From an uncultured bacterium (GTDB taxonomy: Bacteria > JADJOY01), in assembly GCA_964392195.1 (NCBI GenBank), contig CAYMQR010000003.1, forward strand, positions 1-33,633: 33,633 bases of DNA. Direction: 5' to 3'. How positions within the stretch are numbered: the first letter of the stretch is position 1; every line of letters starts with the position of its first letter. Shown here piece by piece: positions 234-20,007 of the stretch. A program made the translations under genes and the position numbers. Under the pieces are notes generated by a model, which made no database searches, was not told the origin of the DNA, and was given only the letters and a program-made list of their open reading frames with translations.

Positions 234-274
234 GAATCGGTTTCCTTCCTCGGAATCGCGCTCGAGCCCCGCGC

Positions 275-1573: not shown

Positions 1574-1648
1574 GTAACTCTCCTCCCCGCACCGCGCTCG
1601 AAACGCCCGCGACTCCGTCGCGGGTCCCCACCCCGGCGGCGAGCGGCC

Positions 1649-4239: not shown

Positions 4240-4308
4240 CCGTAGCGGGATCGATTCCCAGGCGGCACCCGAGACCGAGCGGCGGCTGGTTGTGTGGCGC
4301 CGGCGTCC

Positions 4309-4358
4309 CCGGTGGCTCGCCACCGGCCACCGGCAGGCCCGGGAGACGGGGGCCGGTG
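4309..4358 (-). promoter_or_regulatory. Two adjacent GC-rich hairpins with interchangeable arms inside the only large intercistronic gap (4240-4453) of the GT operon
   Basis: Hairpin A: CCGGTGG (4309-4315) / loop CTCG / CCACCGG (4320-4326). Hairpin B: CACCGGC (4328-4334) ... GCCGGTG (4352-4358), with an inner CCCG/CGGG helix. The arms are near-identical, so alternative pairings (1:3, 2:4) are possible. Function unknown. Confidence 0.3.
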
Positions 4359-4453
4359 CGCAGCGCGCGAGCTGGAGACCCTTTGCGTTGGGCTCGCGGC
4401 GTGCCGAGGTTGGAGTAGCACTACCGATGGGGGGCGTCAACCGAGTGGCACCC

Positions 4454-5578: not shown

Positions 5579-6717
5579 GCGCACGCTCCGGCCGGAGCCA
5601 GTACCCGGCGATGGACCTCGCGGGTGGCGACCGCGCAGCGGCGCCACGAGAATGCCTCCGCGCGCGCCAGCCCGCGCTCCCCGAGCTGCACACGGTCCGC
5701 CGGCGATTCGAGGAGGCGACGGGCGCATGCGGCGAGCGCCCCTTGCTGACCGGGCTCGGCGAAGCAGACCGCGCCGTCGGCCACCTCGGCGACGGCGGGC
5801 AGTCGGTACGCGACGACGGGAGTCCCTCGCGCCATGGCCTCCAGGATCGTGAGGCCGAAGCCCTCCTCCAGCGATGGATGGACGAGTAGCGCGGCTTGCC
5901 GGTAGAGCCCGTCGAGCTCGGCCTCGGTCACGTGACCACGCCAGCTCACCTGTCCGGCGATCCCGAGCGCCGCCGCCGCGAGGCGCAGCGGCTCCACGAA
6001 GCGTGGATCGTGGTCACCGCACAGCACCAGCGGGTGCGCGCGCCGGAGCGGCTCCGGGAGGCCGGCGTACTCGTCGAGCCAGCCGGCCACGTTCTTGTAC
6101 GGATCGAGACGGCCGACGTAGAGGATCGGGCCCCGGGCCCGGGCGTCCGCGAGGTTCGGCGCGCCGCCGCGCGGCAGGTCGACCCCGTTCGCGACCACGT
6201 CGACGGACACGGTCACGCAGGGATCCTCGCGCAGCTCGTCGCGGGTGGCGTTCGACACGGCGACGACGCGGTCGAGGCGGCCCAGGATCACGTGGAGCGG
6301 TAGCCGCGTCGCGAAGAACGCCCGCCACGGCAGCCGCGCGCCAGGTTCCCGTCCGCGCGCCCGCCACGGGATCAGGTCGTGGATCGTGGCGACCGTGCGA
6401 TAGGGGCCGTGAAGCGGCGACGTCAGCACGTGCGGGACGTGCAGCAGATCGACGCCGAGGGTCCGGACCCAGCGCGGGAACGACAGGAAGTCGCGGGCGC
6501 CGAGAAGCGGCACGGGCGAGACCCAGCCGACCGCGGCGGGCTGCAAGCCGCACTCGGCGGCCAGCTCGTCGCGCACCTCGTCGCAGCCGACGGCGAGCCG
6601 ATACCGCTCGCCACCGTCGAGGGCGAGGAGCTCGCGCGCCAGTGAGCGGGTGTATCGCCCGACGCCGTCCGGGCGCCCCGGCCGGATCCAGCGCGCGTCG
6701 AGCGCGATCGTCGTCAT
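5575..6717 (-). CDS. Glycosyltransferase family 4
   Basis: The ORF 5575..6786 was trimmed to ATG 6717 (MTTIALDARWIRPGRPDGVGRYTRSLA...), which forms an ATGA overlap with the upstream stop at 6714-6716. It carries EEGFGLTILEAMARGTPVVAY. Confidence 0.85.
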   Translation of the reverse strand: MTTIALDARWIRPGRPDGVGRYTRSLARELLALDGGERYRLAVGCDEVRDELAAECGLQPAAVGWVSPVPLLGARDFLSFPRWVRTLGVDLLHVPHVLTSPLHGPYRTVATIHDLIPWRARGREPGARLPWRAFFATRLPLHVILGRLDRVVAVSNATRDELREDPCVTVSVDVVANGVDLPRGGAPNLADARARGPILYVGRLDPYKNVAGWLDEYAGLPEPLRRAHPLVLCGDHDPRFVEPLRLAAAALGIAGQVSWRGHVTEAELDGLYRQAALLVHPSLEEGFGLTILEAMARGTPVVAYRLPAVAEVADGAVCFAEPGQQGALAACARRLLESPADRVQLGERGLARAEAFSWRRCAVATREVHRRVLAPAGACA

Positions 6718-7844
6718 CCCCGCACCCGGTTGAAGAGATCGAGGTAGAGGTCTACCCAGCGCCGCGCCGCGCTCGCCTCGGTCCACCGGGCGGCGCGCGC
6801 CGTGCCCCGGGCACCGAGCTCACGCGCCAGGTCGGGGGCGGCCAGCAGCTGTTCGATCGCCGCCGCGATGTCGGTGGTCGAGAGCGGGTCGACGTAGATC
6901 GCCGCGTCGCCTCCGACCTCCGGGAGCGCGCCGGCGCGTGACGCGATCACCGCCGTCCCGCACGCCATCGCTTCCAGCACCGGCAGCCCGAAGCCCTCGG
7001 TCAGCGACGGGAACGCGAGCGCGCGTGCGTCCTGCAGGAGCTCGATCAGATCGCTCTCCGGCACGCGCCCCGTCATGCGCACGTCGCCCGTCAGGCCGAG
7101 GGATGCGACGTGCTGCGCGAGCCCCTCGGTCTGCCAGCCGCTCGGCCCCACGATGGCGAGCTGGCAGGCGCCGGGCCGCGCCGCCACCACCTGCGCGAAA
7201 GCCGCGAGCAGCCGGTCGAGGTTCTTCTTCGGCTCGCGCACTCCGACGAAGACGAAGTACGGATCCCGGAGCCCGTGCCGCGCCGCCGCGCGTTGCGCGG
7301 TCGGCGCGATCCCCGCCCGATCCCTCGGCCGGAACGCGGCGTCCACCCAGTTCGGCACCACCTCGATCCGCGACGCGTCGAGGCCGAACGCCCGCTGGAG
7401 ATCGGCGCGCGTGTGCTCCGACACCGCGACCACCTGGTCCGCCGCCTTGAGCGCGGGGCCGGTGAAGAGCCTGAAGAACAGGCGGTGCTTCCACGGAACG
7501 GTGCCCGGCAGGTGCAGCGGCACCAGATCGTGGACCGTCAGGACCCGGAGCCCCGGGAACGCGAGCGGGAGCTCGAAGTTGGCGACGGCGTGGTAGAGGT
7601 CGATCCGGTCGCGGCGCAGGACGGCCGGGAGCCGCAGGTTGGTCCAGGCGATGCGGCTCTGGCCCGGGACGACAGCCACGCGGAAGTTCGCGGGGAGCGC
7701 CGTCGGCCCGACCTCCCGGTCGACGTACAGCACGTACTCGTTCCCGGCGTCGTGCCGCGCAAGCGCCCCGACGAGGCGTCGCGTATGGATGCCGAGCCCC
7801 GTCGAGTCGCCGAAGCCGAGCCGCGCGTCGATCCCGATCCGCAT
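6714..7844 (-). CDS. Glycosyltransferase family 4
   Basis: 376 aa. Motifs seen: MRIGIDARLGFGDSTGLGIHTRRL..., VSEHTRADL and TEGFGLPVLEAMACGTAVIAS. It is a paralogue of the two preceding GT4 genes. Confidence 0.87.
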   Translation of the reverse strand: MRIGIDARLGFGDSTGLGIHTRRLVGALARHDAGNEYVLYVDREVGPTALPANFRVAVVPGQSRIAWTNLRLPAVLRRDRIDLYHAVANFELPLAFPGLRVLTVHDLVPLHLPGTVPWKHRLFFRLFTGPALKAADQVVAVSEHTRADLQRAFGLDASRIEVVPNWVDAAFRPRDRAGIAPTAQRAAARHGLRDPYFVFVGVREPKKNLDRLLAAFAQVVAARPGACQLAIVGPSGWQTEGLAQHVASLGLTGDVRMTGRVPESDLIELLQDARALAFPSLTEGFGLPVLEAMACGTAVIASRAGALPEVGGDAAIYVDPLSTTDIAAAIEQLLAAPDLARELGARGTARAARWTEASAARRWVDLYLDLFNRVRG

Positions 7845-7860
7845 GGGAGCGGCCGCTCGT

Positions 7861-8871
7861 TCAGCCGTTCACGACCGGCGCGCGCGACTCGACGACCTCC
7901 TTCACGTAGTAGATCGGCTTCGACTGCGACTCGTGGTAGGTGCGTGCGAGCATCTCGGCGACCAGGCCCATGCTGATGAACTGGACACCGACCAGGATCA
8001 GCATCACGAACAGCAACAGGATCGGCCGGTTCGACAGGCTCACGCCCCACAGCATCCGCTGCAGCGAGAGCCACGCGGCGCCGAGGAACCCGACACCGCC
8101 GCACACCATCCCGAGCAAGCCGAAGATCTGGATCGGCTTGGTCGAGTACGACTCCATGAACTTCACGGTGATGAGGTCCAGCAGCACGCGGATGGTGCGG
8201 CCGATGCCGTACTTCGAGACGCCCGCCCGGCGCGCACGATGGTTGACCGGCACCTCGTGCACCGCGACTCCCATCCAGTTGGCGACGGCGGGGATGAAGC
8301 GGTGCAGCTCGCCGTAGAGCCGGATCTGCTGGACCACGTCGGCGCGGAACGCCTTGAGCGTGCAGCCGTAGTCGTGGAGGCTCACCCCGGTCACCGCCGA
8401 GATGAGCCGATTCGCGATCATCGAGGGCAGTCGCCGGCTCAGGAACGGATCCTTGCGGTCCATGCGCCATCCCGCGACGATGTCGTAGCCCTGCTCGATG
8501 CCGGCGAGCAGCTTCGGGACGTCGCGCGGGTCGTTCTGGAGGTCGGCGTCCATGGTGATGATCACCTGGCCGCGTGCGTGATCGAACCCCGCGCTGAGCG
8601 CGGCCGTTTGGCCGAAGTTGCGCCGCAGCAGCACCACCCGAGCCTCGGGACGGCTTGCCGCGATCTTGCGGAGCGCGTCGGCCGTGCCGTCTCGCGATCC
8701 GTCGTCGACCAGGATCACCTCGAACGACTTGCCGAGTGGCTCGAGCGCGCCCCACACGTCCGCGGCGAGCGCGTCGACGTTCTCGATCTCGTTGTACACG
8801 GGGATCACCACCGAGATCTCGGGGCGCACCGGACCTTCGTTCGTCGCGGCTGCGACAGGCGTCGACTTCAT
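7861..8871 (-). CDS. GT2 polyprenyl-phosphate glycosyltransferase (GtrB/ArnC/DPM-synthase-like)
   Basis: Motifs seen: ISVVIPVYNE, ILVDDGSRDGT, NFGQTAAL and the DAD motif in ITMDADLQNDP. Two C-terminal TM helices are present (IQIFGLLGMVCGGVGFLGAAWL, ILLLFVMLILVGVQFISMGLV). The start was set at ATG 8871 (MKSTPV...), which forms an ATGA overlap with the upstream stop. ORF-track start 8901 is the alternative. Confidence 0.85.
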   Translation of the reverse strand: MKSTPVAAATNEGPVRPEISVVIPVYNEIENVDALAADVWGALEPLGKSFEVILVDDGSRDGTADALRKIAASRPEARVVLLRRNFGQTAALSAGFDHARGQVIITMDADLQNDPRDVPKLLAGIEQGYDIVAGWRMDRKDPFLSRRLPSMIANRLISAVTGVSLHDYGCTLKAFRADVVQQIRLYGELHRFIPAVANWMGVAVHEVPVNHRARRAGVSKYGIGRTIRVLLDLITVKFMESYSTKPIQIFGLLGMVCGGVGFLGAAWLSLQRMLWGVSLSNRPILLLFVMLILVGVQFISMGLVAEMLARTYHESQSKPIYYVKEVVESRAPVVNG

Positions 8872-9437
8872 CGGCTCGAACCTCCCCTCACCCTTCGCCA
8901 CGGTCCTGGCGGGAGCTCAGGACGACCTGCACGGATCCAGGCGCCCAGCACAAGCGGCACCACGAGCGCCACCTCGACCAGCAGCAGCCAACCCGAGTGT
9001 GCGACCCAGTCCAACGTCAGCGGCCACGCGCGCGACACCGCCGGCACGACCCAGAGCGGCGCGGAGAACCGATGCTCCGAGAGCGGCCACGCGAGAGGAA
9101 GCCCGCGCCGTGTCCCCGGGTCGTGAGTCAGCCAGTCGAGCACCAGATGGCTGAGGAACGCGCCCGTGACGAGCGCGACGTCGTGGACCCCCACCGGCCG
9201 ACGTCTCGAGATCACCCGGAGGACCAGCGCAGACGCCGCCAGCATCACGAAGACCGAGTGACTCGGTCCATGATGGAATCGGGCCGGCGAGCCGACCAGG
9301 AGCCCGGGAAGAAAATCGAGATCGGCCGACGCGGCCGCGGACGCACCCAGCGCCACACGGGCCCACGTCGGCGCCGGGCCGCCAGCCGTGAACGCCCAAG
9401 CGATGCCGATGGCCAAGTGACCGAGCGGAGTGGACAT
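8868..9437 (-). CDS. YdjM-like membrane-bound metal-dependent hydrolase (DUF457 family)
   Basis: 189 aa and polytopic. It has the N-terminal MSTPLGHLAIG motif, a HHGPSHS motif and HLVLDWLTHD His-rich motifs typical of the YdjM family. Confidence 0.55.
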   Translation of the reverse strand: MSTPLGHLAIGIAWAFTAGGPAPTWARVALGASAAASADLDFLPGLLVGSPARFHHGPSHSVFVMLAASALVLRVISRRRPVGVHDVALVTGAFLSHLVLDWLTHDPGTRRGLPLAWPLSEHRFSAPLWVVPAVSRAWPLTLDWVAHSGWLLLVEVALVVPLVLGAWIRAGRPELPPGPWRRVRGGSSR

Positions 9438-9474
9438 GACGGTCGTTGCGGGTGTGCCGGGGAAGCCGAGCCGA

Positions 9475-9495
9475 GCGCGGCGAAACCGGCCGCGC
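9475..9495 (-). other. Intercistronic GC hairpin between the flippase-like gene and the YdjM-like gene
   Basis: GCGCGGC (9475-9481) / 7-nt loop / GCCGCGC (9489-9495). It lies within the 72-nt gap. Confidence 0.25.
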
Positions 9496-9509
9496 GGCAG
9501 GCTGCGCGT

Positions 9510-10562
9510 TCACGTTCGAGCCGTGATCCGGCGCAGCCCCAGATACGCGAGCCCGCCGAGGATGATCGAGAAGAAGAGCAGCATCACGTGGACGCCGAAC
9601 GCCGTGAGCAGCGCGATGCTCTTGTCGACGCCGAGCACGCCGTGGAACACGACGCTCCAGGCCCATTCGTAGGTCCCCATCCCGGCGATGCCGTGGAACG
9701 GCGTGATGGTCGTCAGCTCCGCCGCGGTCGAGCCGATCACCACGCCCCAGAAGCTCATCTTGGAGGCGGTGCCCGCGTCGTGCATGGCGTGCACCATCAA
9801 CGTGAACGAGAGGAACTTGGCGTACCAGATCACCAGCGACAGGAGGCCGGCTTTCACGTAGGTCGAGGCGCCGGACGTGCGCTCGAACGTCTCGACCATC
9901 CGCTCCGCCGTCTGCTCGATGCGCGCCCTGAGGCTTCCCGGTCTGGCGTTCGCGAGATCGGCGCCGAGCCAGCGATGGATCCAGGCCACGATTCGCGGCA
10001 TCGCGACCAGCCCGCCGGAGAGGACGACGACGCTCGCGACGGCGACGAGCGGCAGGTCCCGGAAAGCCTCCACGGTGTGAGCGCCGCGGAACGAGGCCAC
10101 CGAGAGCAGGAAGATCAGTCCGAGCGTGATGAAGTCGAGGAACCGCGACACCACCAGCGAAACGACCCCGTCGGCGGCGGATAGTCCCTTCTTCTCCCGG
10201 AGCAGCACGACGTAGGAAAGCTCGCCGATCCGGCTGGGAAGGAGGTTGTTGTACATGATGTGTGCCGACGTGATGAGGTAGAGCTCGGCGAACGACAGGT
10301 CCTTGCGCTGCAACAGCACCTGCCAGCGCAACGCGCGGGCGACGTAGCTACCCGCGTAGATCAGGAACGCCGCGACCACCAGCCCGGGACGGATGTTGGC
10401 GGCGAAGCGCGCGATCTCGTCCCACTGCAACCCGCGCAGCAGCCACCACACGAGACCGACCGTCAGCACGACGGCGAGCGCCTCGCGCCACGGCGTCGGG
10501 GCACGCGGCTCCGACGGCGCGCCGGGCAACGGGGCGGCGATCGAGCTCTCGGTGGAGGTCAA
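9510..10562 (-). CDS. UPF0104 / LPG-synthase-TM flippase-like membrane protein
   Basis: 350 aa and polytopic. The segment RALRWQVLL...LLPSRIGELSYVVLLR is characteristic of the flippase-like domain commonly paired with GtrB-like GT2 genes. The ORF-track start is TTG with no clear SD, so the start is uncertain. Confidence 0.6.
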   Translation of the reverse strand: MTSTESSIAAPLPGAPSEPRAPTPWREALAVVLTVGLVWWLLRGLQWDEIARFAANIRPGLVVAAFLIYAGSYVARALRWQVLLQRKDLSFAELYLITSAHIMYNNLLPSRIGELSYVVLLREKKGLSAADGVVSLVVSRFLDFITLGLIFLLSVASFRGAHTVEAFRDLPLVAVASVVVLSGGLVAMPRIVAWIHRWLGADLANARPGSLRARIEQTAERMVETFERTSGASTYVKAGLLSLVIWYAKFLSFTLMVHAMHDAGTASKMSFWGVVIGSTAAELTTITPFHGIAGMGTYEWAWSVVFHGVLGVDKSIALLTAFGVHVMLLFFSIILGGLAYLGLRRITART

Positions 10563-10904
10563 GGCGGGTTGGCTGGACCTCGGCGATCGCGGCGACGTGG
10601 GAGTCCGCCGTCGGATCGGCCGTCGCCGCGACGAGCGGGTCCGCGGCTCGCGCTCGCGCGCGCCATCCCCCTCGGCTCTGGCCCTGCGGCGTCGCGAAGC
10701 TACGGCACGATGACGCGCCTTGTCAAACGATCTCGAACCCGCGTCGGTGAGCCGTCCACAACCTCGGCACGGCGCGCGCTGCTTGCGGTGCCCGCGAGGA
10801 CGGCGCTACCATTGATCTTTCGATTCGGTGGCTTCCGAGGCTCCGTCGCGGTCGGGAGCCGAGCTCGAAGCCGCCCCCCTCCCGACGGAGGAATCCGCTA
10901 GCCC
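10563..10904. promoter_or_regulatory. Divergent intergenic control region between the glycan operon (-) and the radical SAM operon (+)
   Basis: At 342 nt this is the largest non-coding gap in the window and is flanked by divergently oriented first genes. I could not identify convincing -35/-10 or -24/-12 boxes by eye. Confidence 0.4.
10830..10891 (+). promoter_or_regulatory. Structured 5' leader of the first radical SAM gene: a bipartite hairpin plus a hairpin that occludes the Shine-Dalgarno sequence
   Basis: In the bipartite hairpin (10830-10872), GGCTTC...GAAGCC encloses GGCTCC...GGAGCC. It is followed by CCTCC (10878-10882) / loop CGAC / GGAGG (10887-10891), where GGAGG is the only SD-like sequence upstream of ATG 10905. 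Confidence 0.3.
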
Positions 10905-12311
10905 ATGGCCGCTCGACGCGCTCTCTTCATCAACCCGCCGACCGGCAACTACATCCGGGACGACCGCTGCCAGGTTCCGGTCGAGAACTCGACGAGCGTG
11001 CTGCGCGCGCCCATCGACCTCGCCTACATGGCGGCCATGGTCGAGCAGGTCGGCTGGGAAGCGCGGATCGTCGACTATCCGGCGGAAGGTCTCGCCTGGA
11101 AGGACTTCGAGCGCGACCTCGACGTGTTTCGCCCCGATCTCCTCGCGGTGAGCACGACCACGCCGACGCTCCCTGGGGACATGAGGGCGTGTGAGCTCGC
11201 CAAGGCGCGCAACCCGGCGGTGCTCACGATCGCCAAGGGTGCCCACGTCACCACCCACGACGCCGAGACCCTCGCGGCCTTCCCGCAGCTCGACATCGCC
11301 ATCCGAGGCGAGTGCGAGGAGCTGCTCGGCGAGCTCCTCGCCACCGCTGATCGCTCCTCCGTCCTCGGCATCAGCTACCGGGACGGGGACCGGATCCAGC
11401 GCAACCCGGACCGCCCGCGACTCGAGGACCTCGACAGCCTGCCGTGGCCGGCCCGTCACCTCATGAACAACCGGCTCTACATCCGGCCCGACACCGGCGA
11501 GCCGCAGACCACGATCCAGACCAGCCGCGGCTGTCCGGCACGCTGCATCTACTGCCTCGTTCCCACGCTCAGCGGATTCGATACGTACCTGCGCTCGCCG
11601 GCGAGCATCGTCGCCGAGATGAAGCACTGCGTGACTCGCTTCGGCATCCGCAACTTCTACTTCCGCGCCGACACGTTCACGCTGCAGAAGTCCTGGACGA
11701 TCGAGCTCTGCAAGCTCATCCAGGAAGCGAACATGGACGTCGAGTGGGTCTGCAACAGCCGCGTCGACACGATGGACCCCGAGCGCGCCCGCGAGATGCG
11801 CAAGGCCGGTTGCTGGATGGTGGGCTTCGGGGTCGAGTCCGGCAACCAGGAGATCCTGCGCCACATGAAGAAGGGCGCGACGCTGGCGCAGGCCGAGCGC
11901 GCGATCCAGGCGTGCAAGGATGCCGGGATCAAGACCTACCTGTTCTGGGTCCTCGGCAGCCCCTGGGAGACCGCCGAGACGGCGCAGGACACCATCGACT
12001 TCGCGCGCAAGCTCGACGGCGACTTCTGCGAGTTCCACATCGCGTATCCGTTCCCCGGCACGCCGCTCCACGAGATCTGCACCGAAGAGGGTCTGCTGGG
12101 CGAGGAGCAGCTCACGGGACGCAACGTGAAGCAGGCCGTGGCGCGCAGCTACGCCCTCACCGCGGCCGACCTCAAGAAGATCCAGACCCGGGCACTCCGG
12201 TCGTTTTACCTGCGGCCGAGCTACGTCGCTCGAACCCTGCGCTCGATCGACTCGCCGGTGAAGCTCTGGAACTACGCCCGCCGCGGCCTCCAAGTGCTCA
12301 CCCACCCCTGA
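10905..12311 (+). CDS. B12-binding-domain radical SAM enzyme (class B), paralogue 1
   Basis: 468 aa. The N-terminal cobalamin-binding-type domain includes LFINPP...PIDLAYMAAMVEQVGWEARIVD. The radical SAM cluster motif CPARCIYC is at 11532-11555, and the SAM-binding-type segment GFGVESG is present. An in-frame TAG immediately upstream fixes the ATG. Confidence 0.88.
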   Translation: MAARRALFINPPTGNYIRDDRCQVPVENSTSVLRAPIDLAYMAAMVEQVGWEARIVDYPAEGLAWKDFERDLDVFRPDLLAVSTTTPTLPGDMRACELAKARNPAVLTIAKGAHVTTHDAETLAAFPQLDIAIRGECEELLGELLATADRSSVLGISYRDGDRIQRNPDRPRLEDLDSLPWPARHLMNNRLYIRPDTGEPQTTIQTSRGCPARCIYCLVPTLSGFDTYLRSPASIVAEMKHCVTRFGIRNFYFRADTFTLQKSWTIELCKLIQEANMDVEWVCNSRVDTMDPERAREMRKAGCWMVGFGVESGNQEILRHMKKGATLAQAERAIQACKDAGIKTYLFWVLGSPWETAETAQDTIDFARKLDGDFCEFHIAYPFPGTPLHEICTEEGLLGEEQLTGRNVKQAVARSYALTAADLKKIQTRALRSFYLRPSYVARTLRSIDSPVKLWNYARRGLQVLTHP

Positions 12312-13183
12312 TGCACGAGACCCAGCGCAACCACGACCGGCGGACCGACGTGAGCGAGATCCCGTCTAACACCCGAAGAGGCGAGCGATCAGCCGCCGAA
12401 CCCGCCCGCGACACCACGACCCACGCCTCGACGGCGAGCGGTCCGGCGCATCGCGTGACGGTGGTGCTGCCCGCGTACAACGCCGCGCGGACCCTAGAGC
12501 GCACCTACGCGGACATTCCCAAGCACGCCGTCGACGACATCATCCTCGTCGACGACGCGAGCCACGACGAGACCGTCGAGAAGGCCCGCCAGCTCGGCAT
12601 CCACGTGATCGTGCATCCCGAGAACCGGGGATACGGCGGAAACCAGAAGACCTGCTACACGGCGGCGCTCCACCGCGGCGCCGAGGTGATCGTCATGGTC
12701 CACCCGGACTACCAGTACGATCCCCGGGTGCTGCCCGACCTCATCGCGCCGATCCTGAGTGGCCGCGCCGACGTGGTGTTCGGATCACGGTTGGCCACCC
12801 GCGGCGGCGCCCTCGCCGGCGGCATGCCGCTCTACAAGTTCATCGGCAACCGCTTCCTCACGACGATCGAGAACGTGGTCTTCGGTCGCAACATGAGCGA
12901 GTACCACACCGGGCTCCGGGCCTACAGCCGCCGGTTTCTCGAGTCCATCCCGTTCATGAGCAACTCGGACGGCTTCGGCTTCGACTCGGAGGTCGTGGGG
13001 CAGATCGTCACAGGCGGTTACCGCCTCGAGGAGATCCCGGTCGAGACCCGGTACTTCCGGGAGGCGTCGAGCGTGAACCTCAAGATGAGCGTCCTCTACG
13101 GGCTGAAGACGCTCTCGGTCTGCGGACACGTCCTGTGGTTCCGCCTTCGGCGCCTGGTCGGAGCGGCTCCGGACCGAATTTGA
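12311..13183 (+). CDS. GT2 family glycosyltransferase (soluble, about 290 aa)
   Basis: The ORF 11444..13183 was trimmed to ATG 12311 (TGATG overlap with the rSAM stop). Motifs seen: VTVVLPAYNAARTL, ILVDDASHDET, NRGYGGNQK and HPDYQYDP (DxD-like). The first 45 or so residues are low-complexity, so a later GTG near 12455 is possible. Confidence 0.8.
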   Translation: MHETQRNHDRRTDVSEIPSNTRRGERSAAEPARDTTTHASTASGPAHRVTVVLPAYNAARTLERTYADIPKHAVDDIILVDDASHDETVEKARQLGIHVIVHPENRGYGGNQKTCYTAALHRGAEVIVMVHPDYQYDPRVLPDLIAPILSGRADVVFGSRLATRGGALAGGMPLYKFIGNRFLTTIENVVFGRNMSEYHTGLRAYSRRFLESIPFMSNSDGFGFDSEVVGQIVTGGYRLEEIPVETRYFREASSVNLKMSVLYGLKTLSVCGHVLWFRLRRLVGAAPDRI

Positions 13184-13237
13184 CGGGCCTCCGTCCGCGT
13201 CACTACCTTGGACCCATCAGTGAGCTCCGGGATCCAG

Positions 13238-14836
13238 ATGACGTCATCCAGTAGCGACGCGGGCGCCAGGATCGCGCTGGTACGCCCGCCGATCCTGAAG
13301 ATGACCCGGAGCTTGAGCTCCTTCGGGGTCATCCTCCCGATCGGGATCGCGTACGTGGCGGCGGTGCTGCGCCGCGAGGGCCACCGGATCCAGGTCCTGG
13401 ACGCGCCGGGGCTGGCGCTCGACACGTTCCGCCCCCAGCCGAGCCCCATCGGGACGCTCGAGCTCAACGGGCTGAACCCGGAGGAGATTGTCGAGCGGAT
13501 CGATGCCGACACCGAGGTGATCGGCATCACCCACATGTTCCTCCACGAGTGGCCGATGGTGCGCGAGATCGCCGAGCGCGCCCGGGCGCGCTTCCCCCGC
13601 GCCACGATCGTGCTCGGCGGTGAGAACGCCACGGCTTACCGCCGGTGGATCTTCCAGCAGACCGACGCGGTCGATTACTGCGTGCTCGGCGAGGGCGAGC
13701 TGACGATGGCCGAGCTGGTGCGCCGGCTCCGCAGCGGCGAGACGGCCGCCGGTCTGCAGGGCGTCGCATCGCGCGACCCATCGTTGCACCTCGGGCAACC
13801 GAGCCTGTCGCCCCGGCAGGTCGACGTCGACTCCTTCCCGCGGCCGGCCTGGGACCTGTTCCCGGTCGAGGGCTACATGAAGGTGGCCGACACCTTCGGT
13901 GTCCACCGCGGCCGCTCGATGCCGATGCTCGCGACGCGTGGTTGTCCATACCAGTGTACGTTCTGCTCGTCGCCCGACATGTGGACCACCCGCTACGTTG
14001 CTCGGGACGCCGCCGACGTCGTCGACGAGATGACCACGTACGTGCGCCGCTACGGGGTCGAGAACATCAACTTCTGCGACCTCACCGCGTTCGTGAAGCG
14101 CGAGTGGGCGCTCGACTTCGTCACCCGGCTGAAGGAAGCCAAGCTCGACATCGCCTGGCAGCTTCCCGCGGGCACCCGCTCCGAGGCCCTCGACCTCGAC
14201 GTCCTGGCGCTCGCTTACGAGACCGGGTGCCGGAACATCACCTACGCACCCGAGAGCGGGTCGGCCGATCAGCTCGGCCGCATCAAGAAGAAGGTCAAGA
14301 TCCCGCGGCTGGAGGAGTCGCTCCGCACCGCCCACAAGGTCGGCGTCGTAACCCGGATCAACCTGATCATCGGTCATCCGCACGAGACTGCGCGCGACCT
14401 GTGGCAGTCCTACCTTTTCTTGCTGCGCGTGGCGCTCTCGGGCTGCCGCGACGCTTCGGTGATGATCTTCGCGCCGTATCCGGGCAGCGCCGACTTCGAG
14501 GAGCTGATGGCGGCGGGCCGGATCGAGATGACGCCGCAGTATCACTACGCGGCGCTGGTCCGCTCCGGGCTCAGCAGCGTCACGTACAACAAGACGTTCG
14601 GCACGCGCGCGCTGTTCGCGATCCAGTACTTCTTCCTGGTGTCCTTCTACGGGCTCGCGTACCTGAGCCGCCCGTGGCGCTTCATCGACCTGGTCCGCAG
14701 CCTCGTCACGGGCCAGGAGACGAGCAACCTCGACACCCTCGTCCGGGTGAAGATCAAGCGCCGGCTCGGGGATCGGCTGAAGCGTGGGCTCGGCGGTAGG
14801 CCGACCGGCGCCGTCACCGTGGCCGAATCAGCGTGA
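13238..14836 (+). CDS. B12-binding-domain radical SAM enzyme (class B), paralogue 2, with a C-terminal hydrophobic helix
   Basis: Motifs seen: IALVRPP...PIGIAYVAAVLRREGHRIQVLD (B12-type domain), CPYQCTFC and YAPESGS. The hydrophobic segment RALFAIQYFFLVSFYGLAYL is at about 14606-14677. ATG 13238 was chosen; the ORF-track TTG 13208 is the alternative. Confidence 0.85.
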   Translation: MTSSSSDAGARIALVRPPILKMTRSLSSFGVILPIGIAYVAAVLRREGHRIQVLDAPGLALDTFRPQPSPIGTLELNGLNPEEIVERIDADTEVIGITHMFLHEWPMVREIAERARARFPRATIVLGGENATAYRRWIFQQTDAVDYCVLGEGELTMAELVRRLRSGETAAGLQGVASRDPSLHLGQPSLSPRQVDVDSFPRPAWDLFPVEGYMKVADTFGVHRGRSMPMLATRGCPYQCTFCSSPDMWTTRYVARDAADVVDEMTTYVRRYGVENINFCDLTAFVKREWALDFVTRLKEAKLDIAWQLPAGTRSEALDLDVLALAYETGCRNITYAPESGSADQLGRIKKKVKIPRLEESLRTAHKVGVVTRINLIIGHPHETARDLWQSYLFLLRVALSGCRDASVMIFAPYPGSADFEELMAAGRIEMTPQYHYAALVRSGLSSVTYNKTFGTRALFAIQYFFLVSFYGLAYLSRPWRFIDLVRSLVTGQETSNLDTLVRVKIKRRLGDRLKRGLGGRPTGAVTVAESA

Positions 14837-14841
14837 ATGCG

Positions 14842-14878
14842 TGACGCCTCGACGACACGTGTCGCGTCGAGGCGGTCA
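14842..14878. terminator. GC-rich hairpin between convergent genes (candidate bidirectional terminator)
   Basis: TGAC+GCCTCGACG (14842-14854) pairs with CGTCGAGGC+(G)+GTCA (14865-14878), giving about 13 bp with one bulge and a 10-nt loop. It lies in the 80-nt gap between the rSAM stop (14836) and the fbp stop (14917). There is no U-tract. Confidence 0.5.
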
Positions 14879-14916
14879 GGGTTGGCGGCGGGCCTGGGAC
14901 CCGGCGCCCCGGCTGG

Positions 14917-15918
14917 TCACGCCTTACCCTGGATGTAGCGCTCCGCTTCCTCGACGTCCTCGGCGCTGCCGATGATGAGCGGGACGCGCTGGTGGAGGCC
15001 CTCCGGCTGGATCTCCAGGATCCGCTGGCTCCCGGTCGACGCCGCACCACCGGCTCGCTCGCAGATGAGCGCCAGCGGCGCCGCCTCGTAGAGCAGCCTG
15101 AGTTTGCCCTTCGGCGACTTGGAGTCCGCCGGATACAGGAAGATGCCGCCGTAGAGCAGCGTGCGGTGGAAGTCCGCGACGAGCGAGCCGATGTAGCGCG
15201 CCTTGTACGGCAGATTCTTGGCCTTGTCGATCGTCTTCAGGCGATCGATGTAGCGGCGCGTACCCTCGGGCCAGAGGTGGTAATTGCCCTCGTTGGTGCT
15301 GTAGATCGAGCCGCGCCTCGGAATGCGAATGTCCTGGTGCGAGAGCAGGAACTCGCCGACGCTCGGGTCGAGCGTGAAGCCGTGCACGCCGTCGCCGGTG
15401 GTGAACACGAGCATCGTCGAGGTTCCGTAGAGCACGTAGCCGGCGCACACCTGCTCGACACCCGGCTGCATGCAGTCCTGCGGCGTCCCCGGTCCGCTCG
15501 CGCTGCGACGGCGGTGCACCGAGAAGATCGTGCCGATGTTGACGTTCGCGTCGATGTTGCTCGACCCGTCGAGCGGGTCGAAGTTGAGGATGTACTTCCC
15601 GTGCGGGAACCCGTCCGGGATCGGGATGATGTCCTTCTCTTCCTCGGACGCCATCGTGCACAGGAGGCCGGGGTACTGGAACATCCGGATCATCGTCTCG
15701 TGGGCGAACACGTCGAGCTTCTTGACTTCCTCCCCCTGGACGTTGACCGCGCCCGTCGCGCCGAGCACGTCGACGAGCCCCGCATGCGATACCTCACGCT
15801 GGATGACCTTGGCGGCGAGCGCGATGTGCGTCAGCAGCGCCGAGAACTCGCCCGTGGCCCCGGGGTGACGGTGCTCGGTCGAAAGGATGAATCGGTTGAG
15901 GGTCATCGCTTCGGCCAT
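14917..15918 (-). CDS. fbp: Fructose-1,6-bisphosphatase class 1
   Basis: The ORF 14917..16140 was trimmed to ATG 15918 (MAEAMTLNRFILSTEHRHPGATGEFSALL...), which has a GGGAGG RBS 5 nt upstream. FBPase I motifs are present: FDPLDGSSNID, GYVLYGTSTMLV, ARYIGSLVADFHRTLLYGGIFLYP and LRLLYEAAPLA. Confidence 0.93.
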   Translation of the reverse strand: MAEAMTLNRFILSTEHRHPGATGEFSALLTHIALAAKVIQREVSHAGLVDVLGATGAVNVQGEEVKKLDVFAHETMIRMFQYPGLLCTMASEEEKDIIPIPDGFPHGKYILNFDPLDGSSNIDANVNIGTIFSVHRRRSASGPGTPQDCMQPGVEQVCAGYVLYGTSTMLVFTTGDGVHGFTLDPSVGEFLLSHQDIRIPRRGSIYSTNEGNYHLWPEGTRRYIDRLKTIDKAKNLPYKARYIGSLVADFHRTLLYGGIFLYPADSKSPKGKLRLLYEAAPLALICERAGGAASTGSQRILEIQPEGLHQRVPLIIGSAEDVEEAERYIQGKA

Positions 15919-16030
15919 CGCAACCTCCCTTTCCTGGGTGGGGGATCCGGATTCCGGAGAGCCCAAGGAGGCCGAACGTAGCGGGCGCCGTTCGACCCCG
16001 GCAACCGTGCGCGGAAGGCGTGCTCGAGCA

Positions 16031-16060
16031 CGGCGGAGACTCGTTTCCCGGGCTCCGCCG
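16031..16060 (-). terminator. Hairpin immediately after the REC-PilZ stop codon
   Basis: CGGCGGAG (16031-16038) pairs with CTCCGCCG (16053-16060): 8 bp with a 14-nt loop, starting 1 nt from stop 16062-16064. The perfect palindrome GTGCTCGAGCAC (16020-16031) abuts it. There is no U-tract. Confidence 0.35.
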
Positions 16061-16061
16061 C

Positions 16062-16946
16062 TCAGGTTCCGTCGCCCGCCTCGCGGTCGGGGGATGCGGG
16101 CTCGAGACCTCCGAGGGGCCCGGTCTCGGCTTCCAGCCACGGTGCACGGGCCTTGGCTGCCCCGCCATAGCGTTCCAGGTAGCGAACGATCGCCGCGCGC
16201 GCGACTGCCGGCACGTCCTCGAACTCGAGTCCCATTCCTTCCCGGACCTGGACCTGTGCCCCCCGCTTCCCGCCCACGTTGATCCGCACGACCCGGCCTC
16301 GCAGGGCGAGCTCGGCGTTCGCGCCCGGGAGCACGAACCGCATCGACACCTTGGTGTCGACCGGGAACGGTGCGTCGGTCTCGACGAAGGCGCCAGTCGC
16401 GCTCACGTCGGTGAGCAGCCCCTCTAGCCTCTTGGCGAAGAGCCCGAGCACGACAGGCGCCGCCACGGCGACGCGTGGGTGGCGTCGCTGCTCGGGCCTA
16501 CCCGGGGAGAACGACTCGAGCACCGCCTCGGCGAGGTCCGCCGCGGCCCACGACCTGCTCGCACACCGCGTGATGCCGCACGCCTGGCAGACCTCCGGCG
16601 AGGTCGGGTCGAACGGGTCTTCGACGATCCAGACCGGCACATCGCCGAGCAGACCCTTGGCCTTGAGCCAGCTCAGCACCCCGAGTCCGTCGAACTCGAG
16701 CTGACCGACGTCCACCATCACGAGATCCGCACGGCGCCGCTCGGCCCTGAGCCATTCGTACGCCTCGTCCGGGTCCGCGAGCAGCACCGGCGTGAGCCCG
16801 CGCTCGGCGAGGCGCTCCGGCAACTCGGATCCCCGGGCCAGGCCTTCGCCGACGAGAGCGACACGGGGCGAAGAGCGCTGGCGGTCGGGTTGCATCGATC
16901 GGTGAACGCTCGGCGGCGCGGTGAGGATCCCGGGAGATCGTAGCAT
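16062..16946 (-). CDS. Receiver-like domain + PilZ domain protein (putative c-di-GMP receptor)
   Basis: The C-terminal PilZ motifs are RRHPR (RxxxR) and DVSATGAFV (DxSxxG). The N-terminal CheY-like fold (ADLVMVDV...VPVWIV) has ALVGEG where the usual acidic DD pair sits. The start is ambiguous: ATG 16946 or ATG 16895, neither with an SD. Confidence 0.72.
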   Translation of the reverse strand: MLRSPGILTAPPSVHRSMQPDRQRSSPRVALVGEGLARGSELPERLAERGLTPVLLADPDEAYEWLRAERRRADLVMVDVGQLEFDGLGVLSWLKAKGLLGDVPVWIVEDPFDPTSPEVCQACGITRCASRSWAAADLAEAVLESFSPGRPEQRRHPRVAVAAPVVLGLFAKRLEGLLTDVSATGAFVETDAPFPVDTKVSMRFVLPGANAELALRGRVVRINVGGKRGAQVQVREGMGLEFEDVPAVARAAIVRYLERYGGAAKARAPWLEAETGPLGGLEPASPDREAGDGT

Positions 16947-16999: not shown

Positions 17000-18748
17000 G
17001 TGGGCCAGCGGTCCCCCACCGCCTCCCATCTCGTGGATTCCTCGTCGCCGGCCGACCTCGACTGCCTGTTCGTTCACGTCCCCAAAGCGGCGAACCACTA
17101 TCTGCCGCTCGGGGATTTCTTCAACGTGACGTACATGCCGATGGGCCTGCCGGCGCTGGCCGACTGGGCCAACCGCGCCGGCTTCCGGACCGAGATCGTG
17201 CACCTCGGGGTGGAGTGGATCCGCGATCCCGGCTTCGACCTGTTGCGCTGGCTCGACGGCCGCACGGTCCGCGCGTTCGGTCTCCCGCTCTACTGGCACT
17301 ACCAGAGCTACGACGTCATCGAGACCGCGCGCCGGCTCAAGGCGCGCTGCCCCGACTCGTTCGTGTTTCTCGGCGGCCTCACCGCGGGCTACTTCGCGGA
17401 GCAGATCCTGACGCTGGTGCCCGAGATCGACGCGGTCCTCCAGGGACCCGCCGAAGGCGCGATCGTTCCGCTGCTGGAACGCGTGCGCGCCGGCGACGCG
17501 ACCGCGCCCGTCGACGCCTGGGTGCGGGACGCCGACGGCCGGCCGGTTCGCAGGCCGCCGAGCACGACGCGCCCGCCGCTCGACGAGCTCGTGTACGCGA
17601 ACCTCGGCATGATGCGAGGCGCGGACACCTACGCCCAGCTCTTCGGGTTCCCCCTCGCCTACTCCACCGAGCTGCATGCCACCGAGAATCGCGCCCGGCT
17701 CTCCGGCGGGCTAGGGAAGTTTCCGCTCTTCATCGGGCGCGGCTGTCCGTGGAGCTGCACGTTCTGCGGTGGCAACCGCGACACCTTGCGGCGCGTGAAC
17801 GGCACCGCTCACCCCGAGTGGCGCTCCCACGACCGGGTTCTCGCGGACATCCGCCGCGCGATGGGCCACGGCTACCGGGTGGTGTCGACGTGCTTCGATC
17901 CCATTCCCGAGCGCGATGGGTACTTCGTCGACCTGTTCGAGCGGATCGCGCGCGAACGCCTCGACGTCGACTGGTACTTCGAGTGCTGGGGACTGCCGAC
18001 CGAACGCTTCGTCCAGGCGTTCAAGCGAGCGTTCCCCGGTCCGCTCTCCACCATCGCGCTGTCACCCGACGCCGGGAACCAGGCGGTACGGCGCGTGAAC
18101 AAGCAGCCCTACTACGACGACGACGCGCTCTACCGCACGATGCGGATCCTCGAGTCCGCCGAGGTCGCGACCGACGTCTTCTACACGCTCGCGCTTCCGG
18201 GCGAGACGCTCGCCGCGGCCAACGACACGCGCGACCAGATGGCGAGAGTACGGGGGTACCGCAACGCCCGGCGGGTGATGGTCTGGACCGTGCAGCTCGA
18301 GCCGGGTTCACCGCAGTTCGAGCGGCCCGAGGCGTTCCGGATGGAGACGGATCGTCGTTCGTTCCTCGACTACTACCGGGTCCACGGAGGAGCGCACGGC
18401 GACACCTATTCGAGCCTCGGCTTTAAGATCCGCGACTACTTCGGCGACTCCCGCGACGCCGGATCGATCGCCGACTTCGAGACGCGCGTCCAGGCGTACA
18501 AGTGCGCCGACCTGTGCTTCCTCAGCGCCGACCCGCGCGAGCCTGTCGCCGCCGCGAGCGGCCGAGCGCACTGCCTCGAGCGCCGGCGCGAGCTGGCCGC
18601 GCGGCGCGGGTTGCCGCCCCCGGCGCGCACGCTCGGGCCCGGGTACGAGTACGCGGACGCATTCGCCGCCGAGGTCCCGCGCCGCGCGGGCCGGTTCCAC
18701 TGGGTGGCGCCGTCCACCGTTCCGCTCGGCGCCGGGGCGACGCCGTGA
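17000..18748 (+). CDS. B12-binding-type radical SAM enzyme, paralogue 3 (divergent)
   Basis: 582 aa. The N-terminal Rossmann-like domain (LFVHVPK...YMPMGLPALADWANRAGFRTEIVHLG, VFLGGLTAGYF) precedes CPWSCTFCGG. The start is GTG, behind a purine-rich leader. The C-terminal 100 or so residues show no recognisable motif. Confidence 0.78.
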   Translation: MGQRSPTASHLVDSSSPADLDCLFVHVPKAANHYLPLGDFFNVTYMPMGLPALADWANRAGFRTEIVHLGVEWIRDPGFDLLRWLDGRTVRAFGLPLYWHYQSYDVIETARRLKARCPDSFVFLGGLTAGYFAEQILTLVPEIDAVLQGPAEGAIVPLLERVRAGDATAPVDAWVRDADGRPVRRPPSTTRPPLDELVYANLGMMRGADTYAQLFGFPLAYSTELHATENRARLSGGLGKFPLFIGRGCPWSCTFCGGNRDTLRRVNGTAHPEWRSHDRVLADIRRAMGHGYRVVSTCFDPIPERDGYFVDLFERIARERLDVDWYFECWGLPTERFVQAFKRAFPGPLSTIALSPDAGNQAVRRVNKQPYYDDDALYRTMRILESAEVATDVFYTLALPGETLAAANDTRDQMARVRGYRNARRVMVWTVQLEPGSPQFERPEAFRMETDRRSFLDYYRVHGGAHGDTYSSLGFKIRDYFGDSRDAGSIADFETRVQAYKCADLCFLSADPREPVAAASGRAHCLERRRELAARRGLPPPARTLGPGYEYADAFAAEVPRRAGRFHWVAPSTVPLGAGATP

Positions 18749-19998
18749 GCGGCGCGCCAGCGCCGCGGATTCCGGACCGACGCGCCGTCCGCCTGGTCGA
18801 TGCCACGCTTCGCGAGGGCGAGCAGACACCAGGTGTGTGGCTCACGCCGGAGGAGAAGCTCACGATCCTCGAGCTCCTCGGCCAGACCGGGATCGCGCTG
18901 GTCGACGGCTGCTTCCCCGCCGTGTCGGAGGACGAGCGCCGGTTCCTCACGCTCGCCACCGCGCGGCGCGACCTGCCGACCGTCGCCGCCTCGCTGAGGC
19001 TGCGCCTCGAGGAGGTCGAGCTCGCGGCCGATTGCGGCTGCTCGTCGGTGTTCCTCATCGCGCCGGCGAGCGCCGCGCACCGCGAGCTCCGGCTCGGCGG
19101 CGGGCGCGACGACGTCGAGCGCCTCGTCGCCACGCTGGTGGCGCGCTGCGAGGCACTCGCGATCGCGCCGCGCCTCGTGCTCGAGGACGCCAGCCGCGCC
19201 GATCCCGCCGACGTCGCGGCGCTCCTGCGCGCGGGACGAGCGGCGGGGGTCGGGTGCTTCTTCCTTTGCGACACCGTGGGTGTGTGGACGCCCCGGGCGG
19301 CGGCCGCAACGGTGGTCGAGGCCATCGCCACCCTCGGGCCGGGTGTCGAGATCGGTGTCCACTGCCACAACGACTTCGGGATGGCGACGGCGAACACCGT
19401 CGCGGCCATCGAGGCTGGCGCACGCTGCGTGACGGTCACCGTCAACGGCATCGGCGAGCGCGCGGGTCACGCGTCGCTCGCCGAGGTCGCGCTCGCGTGC
19501 ACGGAGATCCTCGGCGTCGACTGCGGCATCGATCCCGCCCGTCTCGCCACGCTCTCCGAGGTGGTCGAGCGGGCGACCGGAATTCCCGTGCCGGTGCAGG
19601 CCCCGGTCATCGGCCCGACGGCCTTCCGGCACGAGTCCGGGATGCATGTACAGGGCGTCCTGCGAGACCCGGCGACGTACGAGCCGATGGAACCCGCGCG
19701 CTTGCGACGGCACCGCGAGTTCGTGGTCGGGAAGCACACCGGACGCGCGCTGTTGCGCGCGATCGCCGACAAAAGGGGGCTGGTCGTCGACGAAGCGGTG
19801 CTGGCTCGCGCGCTCGAGCGGCTGAAGGAGGCGCGCCCGGCCGCGCGCGCCGCGGCCTTCGAGCGCTTCCGGCGCGAGCGCGATCGCTACCTGGCGCTCG
19901 CGCTCGGCCTGCCTCTCGATGTCGCCGAACGGTTGCTCCTCGAGTGCGGCGCCCGTCCCTCCCCGTCGACCGAGCCCGCCGCCCGCACGGCGGTCTGA
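18745..19998 (+). CDS. Homocitrate synthase / 2-alkylmalate synthase family enzyme (HMGL-like DRE-TIM), short form without a LeuA regulatory domain
   Basis: The ORF 18502..19998 was trimmed to GTG 18745 (GTGA overlap with the rSAM stop). Motifs seen: DATLREGEQ, VHCHNDFGMATANTVAAIEAGA, NGIGERAGHA and FRHESGMH. The length of about 417 aa matches NifV/AksA-type enzymes. Confidence 0.85.
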   Translation: MSGAPAPRIPDRRAVRLVDATLREGEQTPGVWLTPEEKLTILELLGQTGIALVDGCFPAVSEDERRFLTLATARRDLPTVAASLRLRLEEVELAADCGCSSVFLIAPASAAHRELRLGGGRDDVERLVATLVARCEALAIAPRLVLEDASRADPADVAALLRAGRAAGVGCFFLCDTVGVWTPRAAAATVVEAIATLGPGVEIGVHCHNDFGMATANTVAAIEAGARCVTVTVNGIGERAGHASLAEVALACTEILGVDCGIDPARLATLSEVVERATGIPVPVQAPVIGPTAFRHESGMHVQGVLRDPATYEPMEPARLRRHREFVVGKHTGRALLRAIADKRGLVVDEAVLARALERLKEARPAARAAAFERFRRERDRYLALALGLPLDVAERLLLECGARPSPSTEPAARTAV

Positions 19999-20007
19999 GC
20001 GGCACCC

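Follow-up and report, generated by a model that had tools for sequence, protein, structure and literature searches.

A B12-domain radical SAM enzyme paired with a short glycosyltransferase across uncultured phyla hints at a so far undescribed modification of cell-surface sugars

We analysed a stretch of 33,633 nucleotides from an uncultured bacterium (GTDB lineage JADJOY01; assembly GCA_964392195.1, contig CAYMQR010000003.1, positions 1 to 33,633 of the forward strand), hereafter the window. It carries three consecutive genes for a radical S-adenosylmethionine (SAM) enzyme with a B12-binding-type domain (rSAM1), a short glycosyltransferase of family 2 (GT2) and a second B12-domain radical SAM enzyme (rSAM2). 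Homologues of rSAM1 are paired with GT2s across uncultured phyla, and this pairing suggests that cell-surface sugars are modified in a manner not yet described. Our tentative reading, held with somewhat less than even confidence, is that the three genes form an operon which tailors a lipid-linked monosaccharide: the GT2 would make a polyprenyl-phosphate sugar and the radical SAM enzymes would modify it before it is flipped and transferred. The three genes are the following:

10905 to 12311, + strand: rSAM1, an open reading frame (ORF) of 468 amino acids.
12311 to 13183, + strand: the short GT2, 290 amino acids if the ATG at 12311 is the start.
13238 to 14836, + strand: rSAM2, 532 amino acids from an ATG start; an alternative TTG start at 13208 would give 542 amino acids.

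The gene neighbourhoods of the rSAM1 homologues carry the finding. In 25 of 80 species-level loci the rSAM1 homologue has a GT2 as its direct neighbour, and in 36 there is one within two genes. Compared with a local background of 12 GT2s in 278 genes, GT2 adjacency is about four-fold enriched (binomial p ~5e-9), in a test whose species are phylogenetically non-independent. The linkage persists across gene orders, with the GT2 gene preceding the rSAM1 homologue in some groups and following it in others. Furthermore, GT2s that are 55-61% identical to the one in the window stand directly downstream of rSAM1 homologues in Planctomycetia, in Omnitrophota and in a 'Deltaproteobacteria' metagenome-assembled genome (MAG; L015). 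A large polytopic membrane protein is encoded within four genes in 35 of the 80 loci, and either a GT2 or such a protein is present in 53. Because the linkage of this family to GT2s is strongly conserved across phyla, we argue that rSAM1 works with the GT2 on a sugar. A preliminary description of this DNA had already suggested a radical SAM enzyme acting on a sugar beside a glycosyltransferase, and the cross-phylum linkage backs that suggestion.

The complete triad has a much narrower range. It is kept in five related MAGs (L006-L010), together with the whole stretch from the family 4 glycosyltransferases (GT4s) to a third radical SAM gene, and the identities to the window are 88-96% for rSAM1, 83-91% for the GT2 and 79-91% for rSAM2. 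The nearest genome is L010, a 'Deltaproteobacteria bacterium' MAG with an rSAM1 that is 96% identical. In L010 the rSAM1 gene (10001-11403) is one base short, with 1403 instead of 1404 nucleotides, and the tblastn match is split in two; this indel is probably an assembly error and not a real pseudogene. Outside the lineage, neither 75 other GTDB species loci nor 80 metagenome loci anchored on rSAM2 contained the triad. Among the neighbours of rSAM1 homologues, the protein most like rSAM2 has 27% identity to it, and beside the rSAM2 homologues there was no match of rSAM1-family strength. Thus the triad is a lineage-specific elaboration, and the broader result is a conserved cassette of a radical SAM enzyme and a GT2, which may be extended by a methyltransferase and a GT-C transferase. 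Of the synteny that the preliminary description had proposed to follow, the rSAM1-GT2 pair is therefore conserved across phyla, whereas the full triad is conserved only in the five close relatives.

Regarding the partners of the rSAM1 homologues, PMT_2 GT-C transferases, YfhO-like proteins and small class-I methyltransferases recur, as do other B12-domain radical SAM enzymes, GT4s and GT9s. Among the loci homologous to any part of the operon, a GT-C is encoded with the GT2 in L001, L004, L088, L090 and L091, and in group A through c10, an unannotated membrane partner which groups with PMT_2 in a profile-profile comparison (94.5%) and whose profile had no match in the PDB. For c12, a membrane partner in Nitrospirota, the comparison gave no link to PMT_2 (hhalign 0.6%). 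Modules made up of a radical SAM enzyme, a GT2, a methyltransferase and a GT-C recur, and L001 carries two of them in tandem.

Several individual loci deserve a description of their own. In Omnitrophota and Planctomycetia (L001, positions 1-15422, L011, L013, L016 and L023) the order is rSAM1 homologue, GT2, methyltransferase and, in part, a PMT_2-like membrane protein, and these modules adjoin a fusion of a CMP-sugar synthetase with NeuB and an Epimerase_2-like protein, a neighbourhood whose predicted chemistry is of the nonulosonic-acid type. The second tandem module of L001 consists of a methyltransferase, a B12-domain radical SAM enzyme, a GT2 and a PMT. In the protein P0095 (751 amino acids), class-I SAM methyltransferase domains are naturally fused to an enzyme of the rSAM1 family. 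P0095 matches the small methyltransferase whose gene, in L004, L019, L034, L037 and L083, overlaps the rSAM1 homologue at the 5' end. Another architecture comprises a GT2, an amine-oxidase-like protein of the flavin adenine dinucleotide type, an rSAM1 homologue, a second B12-domain radical SAM enzyme and a TPR protein (L027, L033, L035, L038, L052-L054, L058, L062, L065 and L076, not all of which hold all five). The amine-oxidase-like protein has a weak match to UDP-galactopyranose mutase, and the second radical SAM enzyme is 27-30% identical to rSAM1. Finally, plasmid 1 of Lawsonia intracellularis (L174, NC_008012.1, 8157-25515; a 27-kb plasmid) is largely a glycan cluster. Besides three GT2s and five class-I methyltransferases it encodes two small membrane proteins with DUF2304 and a membrane protein with DUF2142, and among these genes lies one of its two radical SAM genes, whose B12-domain product is distantly related to rSAM1 (28% identity).

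Returning to the window, the GC content at the third codon position (GC3) is 0.92 in the stop-to-stop frames that hold rSAM1 and rSAM2, in DNA of about 70% GC, and the codon-position GC of these frames is the pattern expected for real genes. The GT2 frame lies outside the GC3 list, and we take it as coding because of its Pfam match and its homologues. Both radical SAM proteins pass the Pfam gathering score for PF02310 (B12-binding) and PF04055 (Radical_SAM), with 59 and 93 bits respectively for rSAM1 and 66 and 60 bits for rSAM2. Their cluster motifs are TSRGCPARCIYC (CPARCIYC core) in rSAM1 and TRGCPYQCTFC in rSAM2, and the three cluster cysteines are invariant in the alignments of both families. 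With PF02310, PF04055 and CxxxCxxC all present, both are assigned to the class-B (B12-binding-domain) radical SAM superfamily. They share 26% identity and fall by sequence comparison into two distinct large families; calling them paralogous, as had been done, is therefore right at the superfamily level only. The content of the three ORFs as first described was borne out by the Pfam matches and the motifs, and the divergence of the operon from a glycan locus by the genes found on the minus strand.

The stop codon of rSAM1 overlaps an ATG (TGATG) in the window, L006 and L010, that is, in three of the six genomes of the lineage, whereas L007-L009 have TGACG. The one-nucleotide junction pointed out in the preliminary description is thus present in the window but not conserved. 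The N-terminal ~45 residues of the GT2 vary and form an extension peculiar to the lineage, and for this reason the true start of the gene is uncertain. In the distant loci that were checked, the GT2 gene overlaps the rSAM1 homologue or comes closely after it.

The short GT2 matches PF00535 (Glycos_transf_2) with 83 bits and has no predicted transmembrane segment. Its top NCBIfam matches are AglJ (89.7 bits against a cut-off of 325), PpgS (79.2 against 370) and a dolichyl-phosphate hexose transferase family, all below cut-off, and it scores 36.2 bits against the ArnC family (cut-off 529). By sequence, its top PDB matches are DPMS (5mlz) and ArnC. It therefore probably makes a polyprenyl-phosphate sugar, as an enzyme of the DPM1/ArnC/AglJ/PpgS type. 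It had been described as short, soluble and unlike HpnI, and so we found it: BLASTP against HpnI gave E = 1.3 and there was no match to TIGR03472, which rules out an identity with HpnI. Its closest relatives outside these cassettes include Chloroflexi GT2s (60-67% identity), and both of the two Chloroflexi loci examined have the GT2 between PMT_2 GT-C genes, with no adjacent B12-domain radical SAM gene. Since these homologues adjoin PMT_2 without a radical SAM enzyme, we suggest that the GT2 is a generic maker of lipid-linked donors to which the radical SAM protein was added as a tailoring enzyme.

Among curated families, rSAM1 is matched best by HpnJ (TIGR03471), end to end, with 257.3 bits against a cut-off of 577.6. 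HpnJ was also the strongest curated match for all 22 rSAM1-family members scanned (best E 6e-85), the comparison of bit score with cut-off being given for rSAM1 only. Identity to the genuine HpnJ of a Paraburkholderia megaplasmid is 30% over 440 residues. The other scores are lower, with 160 bits for BchE TIGR02026 (cut-off 481), 130.9 for the AprD4 family NF033070 (500), 106 for the ladderane-associated TIGR04072 (360), 98 for NF038361 (575) and 79 for HpnR (650). At least 2932 homologues were found, at 45-55% identity, in Omnitrophota, Sumerlaeota, Planctomycetia, Nitrospirota, Binatia, Patescibacteria and DPANN archaea, nearly all of them uncultured, and the family had no functional name in any source consulted. 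In these comparisons rSAM1 thus falls into a large family, as yet unnamed, with HpnJ as its sister group. The family has its own invariant N-terminal motif, RDDRCQVP, which is missing from HpnJ, as is Cys303. Four cysteines outside CxxxCxxC (Cys22, 242, 269 and 303, the first of them within RDDRCQVP) are invariant across the 22 members and may serve an auxiliary iron-sulphur cluster or a redox role.

The AlphaFold2 model of rSAM1 has a pLDDT of 90.6, and its closest solved fold is AprD4 (6fd2), with a TM-score of 0.78-0.82 over the whole chain, followed by TsrM, MgmA, CysS, OxsB and TokK. By sequence, too, the closest solved structure is AprD4 (114 bits, 23% identity). Like rSAM1, AprD4 joins a B12-like N-terminal domain to a radical SAM barrel, and it acts on the hexose ring of a glycoside. 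AprD4 has this domain but is not known to use cobalamin, so a B12-type domain alone would be no proof of cobalamin use, and rSAM1 and rSAM2 may or may not bind the cofactor that their domains suggest. AprD4 is a radical SAM 1,2-diol dehydratase of paromamine, not a methylase, and is partnered by the NADPH reductase AprD3 (PMC5461906). It differs from our case in that its substrate is a soluble aminoglycoside, and at the window locus there is no adjacent AprD3-type NAD(P)H reductase and there are no aminoglycoside genes.

For rSAM2 the best NCBIfam match is NF038361, a methyltransferase family, with 164 bits against a cut-off of 575; BchE follows with 118 bits (481), TIGR04072 with 86 (360), HpnR with 84 (650), HpnJ with 82.8 (577.6) and AprD4 NF033070 with 55.2 (500). 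It belongs to a second unnamed family, with at least 2602 homologues. A hydrophobic segment begins at residue 458, the model has a helix at 456-477 and the family consensus is conserved there. The fold search gave generic class-B matches only, which do not separate the chemistries. Members of this family, too, are often neighboured by GT2s and by membrane proteins of the PMT_2 or TPR kind, though less consistently than those of the rSAM1 family. Of 50 loci, 24 encode a polytopic protein no more than four genes away, and 7 have a GT2 directly beside the rSAM2 homologue. In the curated-family profile scan, which had been proposed as a check of the preliminary description, neither radical SAM protein reached any NCBIfam cut-off, HpnP included, and neither belongs to a characterised subfamily. 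Membership in HpnJ, BchE, AprD4, HpnR, the P-methyltransferases (PhpK/Sden_1168), TIGR04072 and TIGR04295 was rejected in this way.

From these data we propose the following steps. On the cytoplasmic side of the membrane, the short GT2 would move a hexose from a nucleotide sugar to polyprenyl phosphate, the reaction type of DPM1, ArnC, AglJ and PpgS. A 5'-deoxyadenosyl radical formed by rSAM1 would then take a hydrogen from the ring of the lipid-linked sugar, and the ring would be remodelled. Across phyla rSAM1 is inherited together with the GT2, and the two are often translationally coupled. The remodelling would more likely be a non-methylating dehydration, deoxygenation or rearrangement than a C-methylation, since AprD4 and HpnJ are non-methylating enzymes of sugar rings, an argument by inference. 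In the lineage of the window, rSAM2 may add a second radical step, possibly a methylation. The product would be flipped, perhaps by the divergently encoded LPG_synthase_TM protein, and a GT-C-type transferase encoded outside the window would donate it to an envelope glycan, lipid or protein. The data themselves show the structure of the genes, their domains and family placement, their position outside the curated families, the linkage of rSAM1 and GT2 across phyla and the confinement of the triad to one lineage. By contrast, we infer which lipid is the acceptor, in what order the steps occur, what chemistry takes place, that cobalamin is used and where the sugar ends up. The substrate is likely a polyprenyl-phosphate-linked monosaccharide bound for a GT-C, and not necessarily a product of the neighbouring operon of GT4 and Bac_transf genes.

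Such a pathway would resemble the three-component systems (ArnC/ArnD/ArnE-F/ArnT, Ppm1/Pmt, PpgS/Rv3779 and GtrA/B/V), with which the locus shares a DPM1-type GT2 and candidate flippases and the homologous loci a GT2 next to a PMT_2- or YfhO-type GT-C. Tailoring at the lipid-linked stage has precedents in the deformylase ArnD and in the epimerisation by DprE1/E2. The difference is that a B12-domain radical SAM protein is not described as a tailoring enzyme in those systems, and that the window holds no GT-C.

Several points weigh against our proposal. The GT2 and both radical SAM proteins miss all equivalog cut-offs, so that the assignment of a substrate would be one of family resemblance, and for the GT2 the matches did not reach an equivalog-level assignment to one enzyme or one sugar. 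The evidence fits an action on a lipid-linked sugar, on a nucleotide sugar or on the lipid itself alike. The transfer step is without a local candidate: the four GT-C-like clusters had no tblastn match in the window, and no protein checked there has seven or more transmembrane segments. The association of the rSAM2 family with GT2s is weak (7/50 loci, as above), and the species behind the GT2 enrichment are, as said, not independent. Furthermore, about one third of the rSAM1-family loci (27/80) have neither a GT2 nor a polytopic membrane protein. In Sumerlaeota (L043, L045, L046, L069 and L079), for example, the rSAM1 homologue (46-50% identity) directly follows a FolE-like protein, which was read as GTP cyclohydrolase I from its sequence alone, with no profile search, and no GT2 is nearby. 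Because of such loci the rSAM1 family may be functionally mixed.

Another explanation is that both radical SAM enzymes are cobalamin-dependent C-methyltransferases of the GenK/GenD1 type, which place one or two C-methyl branches on the nucleotide- or lipid-linked sugar of the GT2. Most characterised class-B radical SAM enzymes are methylases, TsrM, MgmA, CysS and TokK are significant fold matches, both proteins have a B12-binding-type domain above the Pfam threshold and the best curated match of rSAM2 is a methyltransferase family. GenK and GenD1 are, as here, class-B enzymes acting on sugars in a cluster that contains glycosyltransferases. However, we found no specific sequence relationship to them, their substrates are soluble aminoglycoside intermediates, and no methylase cut-off was reached. 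The two closest characterised relatives of rSAM1, HpnJ and AprD4, are not methylases (PMC5461906), which is why C-methylation is not favoured for rSAM1. In addition, members of the rSAM1 family are frequently accompanied by class-I SAM methyltransferases and even fused to them, which shows that methylation is supplied separately, an arrangement still compatible with C-methylation. We consider this explanation unlikely. The preliminary description had named C-methylation first, beside rearrangement; for rSAM1, rearrangement is among the chemistries that we favour.

It is quite unlikely that the radical SAM enzymes act on another substrate, such as lipid alkyl chains, the polyprenyl carrier or a peptide, and that the adjacency of the GT2 reflects shared regulation in a region of envelope biogenesis. 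The 27 rSAM1-family loci just mentioned and 23 of the 50 rSAM2-family loci, which lack a nearby GT2 or large membrane protein, would fit such a substrate, as would the weak matches of both proteins to the lipid-modifying families TIGR04072 and HpnR, the conserved C-terminal hydrophobic helix of rSAM2 and a distant relative in Clostridium that lies within a cluster resembling those for ribosomally synthesized and post-translationally modified peptides. Nevertheless, shared regulation accounts poorly for an adjacency about four-fold over background in several independent gene orders, for an rSAM1 stop codon overlapping a possible GT2 start in half of the lineage genomes, with distant GT2s overlapping or closely following, and for nearest characterised relatives that act on sugar rings.

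The hopanoid enzyme HpnJ suggests a third explanation. In Paraburkholderia graminis the hpnJ gene overlaps the hpnI gene behind it by 4 nucleotides, and a gene with an LPG_synthase domain comes next; in the window, the LPG_synthase_TM gene diverges from an rSAM1 that overlaps the GT2, so that the same three families are laid out together. The presumed logic is also alike, the lipid being glycosylated first and its sugar then remodelled by radical chemistry (PMC13459092). According to this 2026 review of lipid-modifying radical SAM enzymes, HpnJ and Cds are proposed to contract the ring of a lipid-linked hexose, reactions that have never been reconstituted; the term 'polyprenyl' does not occur in the review. 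Accordingly, the GT2 could glycosylate a membrane lipid at an alcohol or phosphate, rSAM1 could contract the pyranose to a five-membered carbocyclic cyclitol and the LPG_synthase_TM protein could handle the lipid, in the role presumed for HpnL; the product would be a cyclitol lipid and not a glycosyl donor. HpnJ being by far the best curated match of all 22 family members speaks for this.

The resemblance to the hpn operon is, however, one of architecture and probable logic and not of membership, because only the radical SAM enzymes are detectably homologous. The score of rSAM1 is below half the HpnJ cut-off, and HpnJ is without RDDRCQVP and Cys303. The GT2, a soluble protein of the DPM1 type, is unrelated to HpnI, and the LPG_synthase_TM protein has no significant similarity to the HpnL-like protein of P. 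graminis (BLASTP E = 0.66), which rules out an identity with HpnL. The 33.6-kb window encodes no deacetylase of the HpnK/YdjC type and no squalene-hopene cyclase, and it holds no further hpn genes. The statement that none of the other genes of the Hpn pathway are present thus holds for HpnK and for similarity to HpnI, but it overlooked the divergently adjacent gene with an HpnL-type domain. Finally, homologous cassettes include GT-C transferases, which hopanoid clusters do not need; these recurrent partners require a transferable anomeric centre, which a carbocycle would not have, and they therefore disfavour ring contraction. We judge it very unlikely, and less probable again is its fuller version, in which an HpnJ/calditol-synthase-type ring contractor was recruited to a non-hopanoid, non-archaeal lipid, the GT2 supplying the hexose and rSAM2 decorating the cyclitol. 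If it were true, bacteria would have a new class of acid-stable cyclitol lipids, which by the range of the family would occur in Omnitrophota, Planctomycetota and bacteria of the candidate phyla radiation, as well as in DPANN archaea.

The surroundings of the operon add candidate components to the tailoring of a lipid-linked sugar that we prefer. Upstream of rSAM1 the features are:

10563 to 10904, no strand: intergenic region of 342 bp between the LPG_synthase_TM gene and rSAM1.
9510 to 10562, - strand: LPG_synthase_TM or flippase-like membrane protein (PF03706, 136 bits) with six hydrophobic segments.
8868 to 9437, - strand: putative inner-membrane hydrolase of the YdjM family (PF04307, 58 bits).
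7861 to 8901, - strand: ArnC-like GT2 with two C-terminal transmembrane helices (PF00535, 122 bits; NF007986, 249 bits against a cut-off of 529).

The LPG_synthase_TM protein also matches the TIGR00374 'flippase-like domain' with 61 bits, above the cut-off of 43.2. Its gene is syntenic in L006-L010, and as a partner it was found only in the window's own lineage; the protein is a candidate flippase or partner of the module. Of the five close relatives, L006-L008 and L010 have the YdjM gene in synteny, and the stretch of L009 stops before it; we give it as genomic context only, its role in the system not being established. The ArnC-like GT2 has transmembrane segments from residues 256 and 284, is 30% identical to the short GT2 and is probably a second polyprenyl-phosphate sugar synthase. 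It heads a glycan operon of GT4 and Bac_transf genes, and the rest of this minus-strand locus holds four GT4s, a Bac_transf priming transferase and a UDP-glucose dehydrogenase.

The intergenic region presumably carries both divergent promoters. Between 10400 and 15100 there was no sigma-70-like promoter match, and the single match resembling a terminator, within the coding sequence of rSAM1 (12188-12200), is no more than shuffles of this segment yield. No Rfam RNA element, the cobalamin riboswitch included, was found in the window at the gathering threshold. On its 3' side the operon meets the convergent genes of a class-1 fructose-1,6-bisphosphatase (FBPase) and a PilZ protein. The FBPase ORF (14917-16140, - strand) has an arginine-rich N-terminal extension of about 75 residues, which overlaps the end of the PilZ ORF (16062-16946, - strand), and translation probably begins instead at an internal Met near residue 75. 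The match of the PilZ protein to the Myxococcus paralogue domain TIGR02266 stays below the cut-off and hints at an origin in Myxococcota. Farther downstream, the third B12-domain radical SAM gene (17000-18748) is syntenic in L006-L010 and its product resembles TIGR04190 (129 bits against a cut-off of 500). It opens a plus-strand run (17000-25733) with a homocitrate/isopropylmalate-synthase-like protein, large and small subunits of the homoaconitase type, a flavoprotein and LuxE-like and LuxC-like genes for acyl activation and reduction, and a radical SAM/SPASM protein (25728-26960, - strand) is convergent to this run. It looks like a separate pathway of 2-oxoacid chain elongation and acyl reduction.

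Our literature searches found no description of a B12-domain radical SAM enzyme coupled to a GT-C system or a polyprenyl-phosphate GT2, nor did they find HpnJ-like enzymes described from anywhere but hopanoid clusters; the earlier remark that such chemistry has no assigned pathway in this context agrees with them. Sugar-tailoring class-B radical SAM enzymes and three-component lipid-linked glycosylation are both known already, and here they appear to be combined in one cassette. The soluble two-gene cassette of radical SAM enzyme and GT2 could be a tractable way into the HpnJ chemistry, the rSAM1 family being the closest relative of HpnJ, and the Lawsonia plasmid, which comes from a cultivable pathogen, could serve as an experimental handle for such systems. 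The gene context would also give an annotation to two large families that are now called 'radical SAM protein' or mislabelled 'BchE' or 'YgiQ'. If our proposal is true, radical SAM enzymes would remodel monosaccharides on their polyprenyl-phosphate carrier before a GT-C transfers them to the cell surface, a tailoring step described for no lipid-linked glycosylation system, and this would explain unusual deoxy, branched or rearranged envelope sugars in many uncultured lineages.

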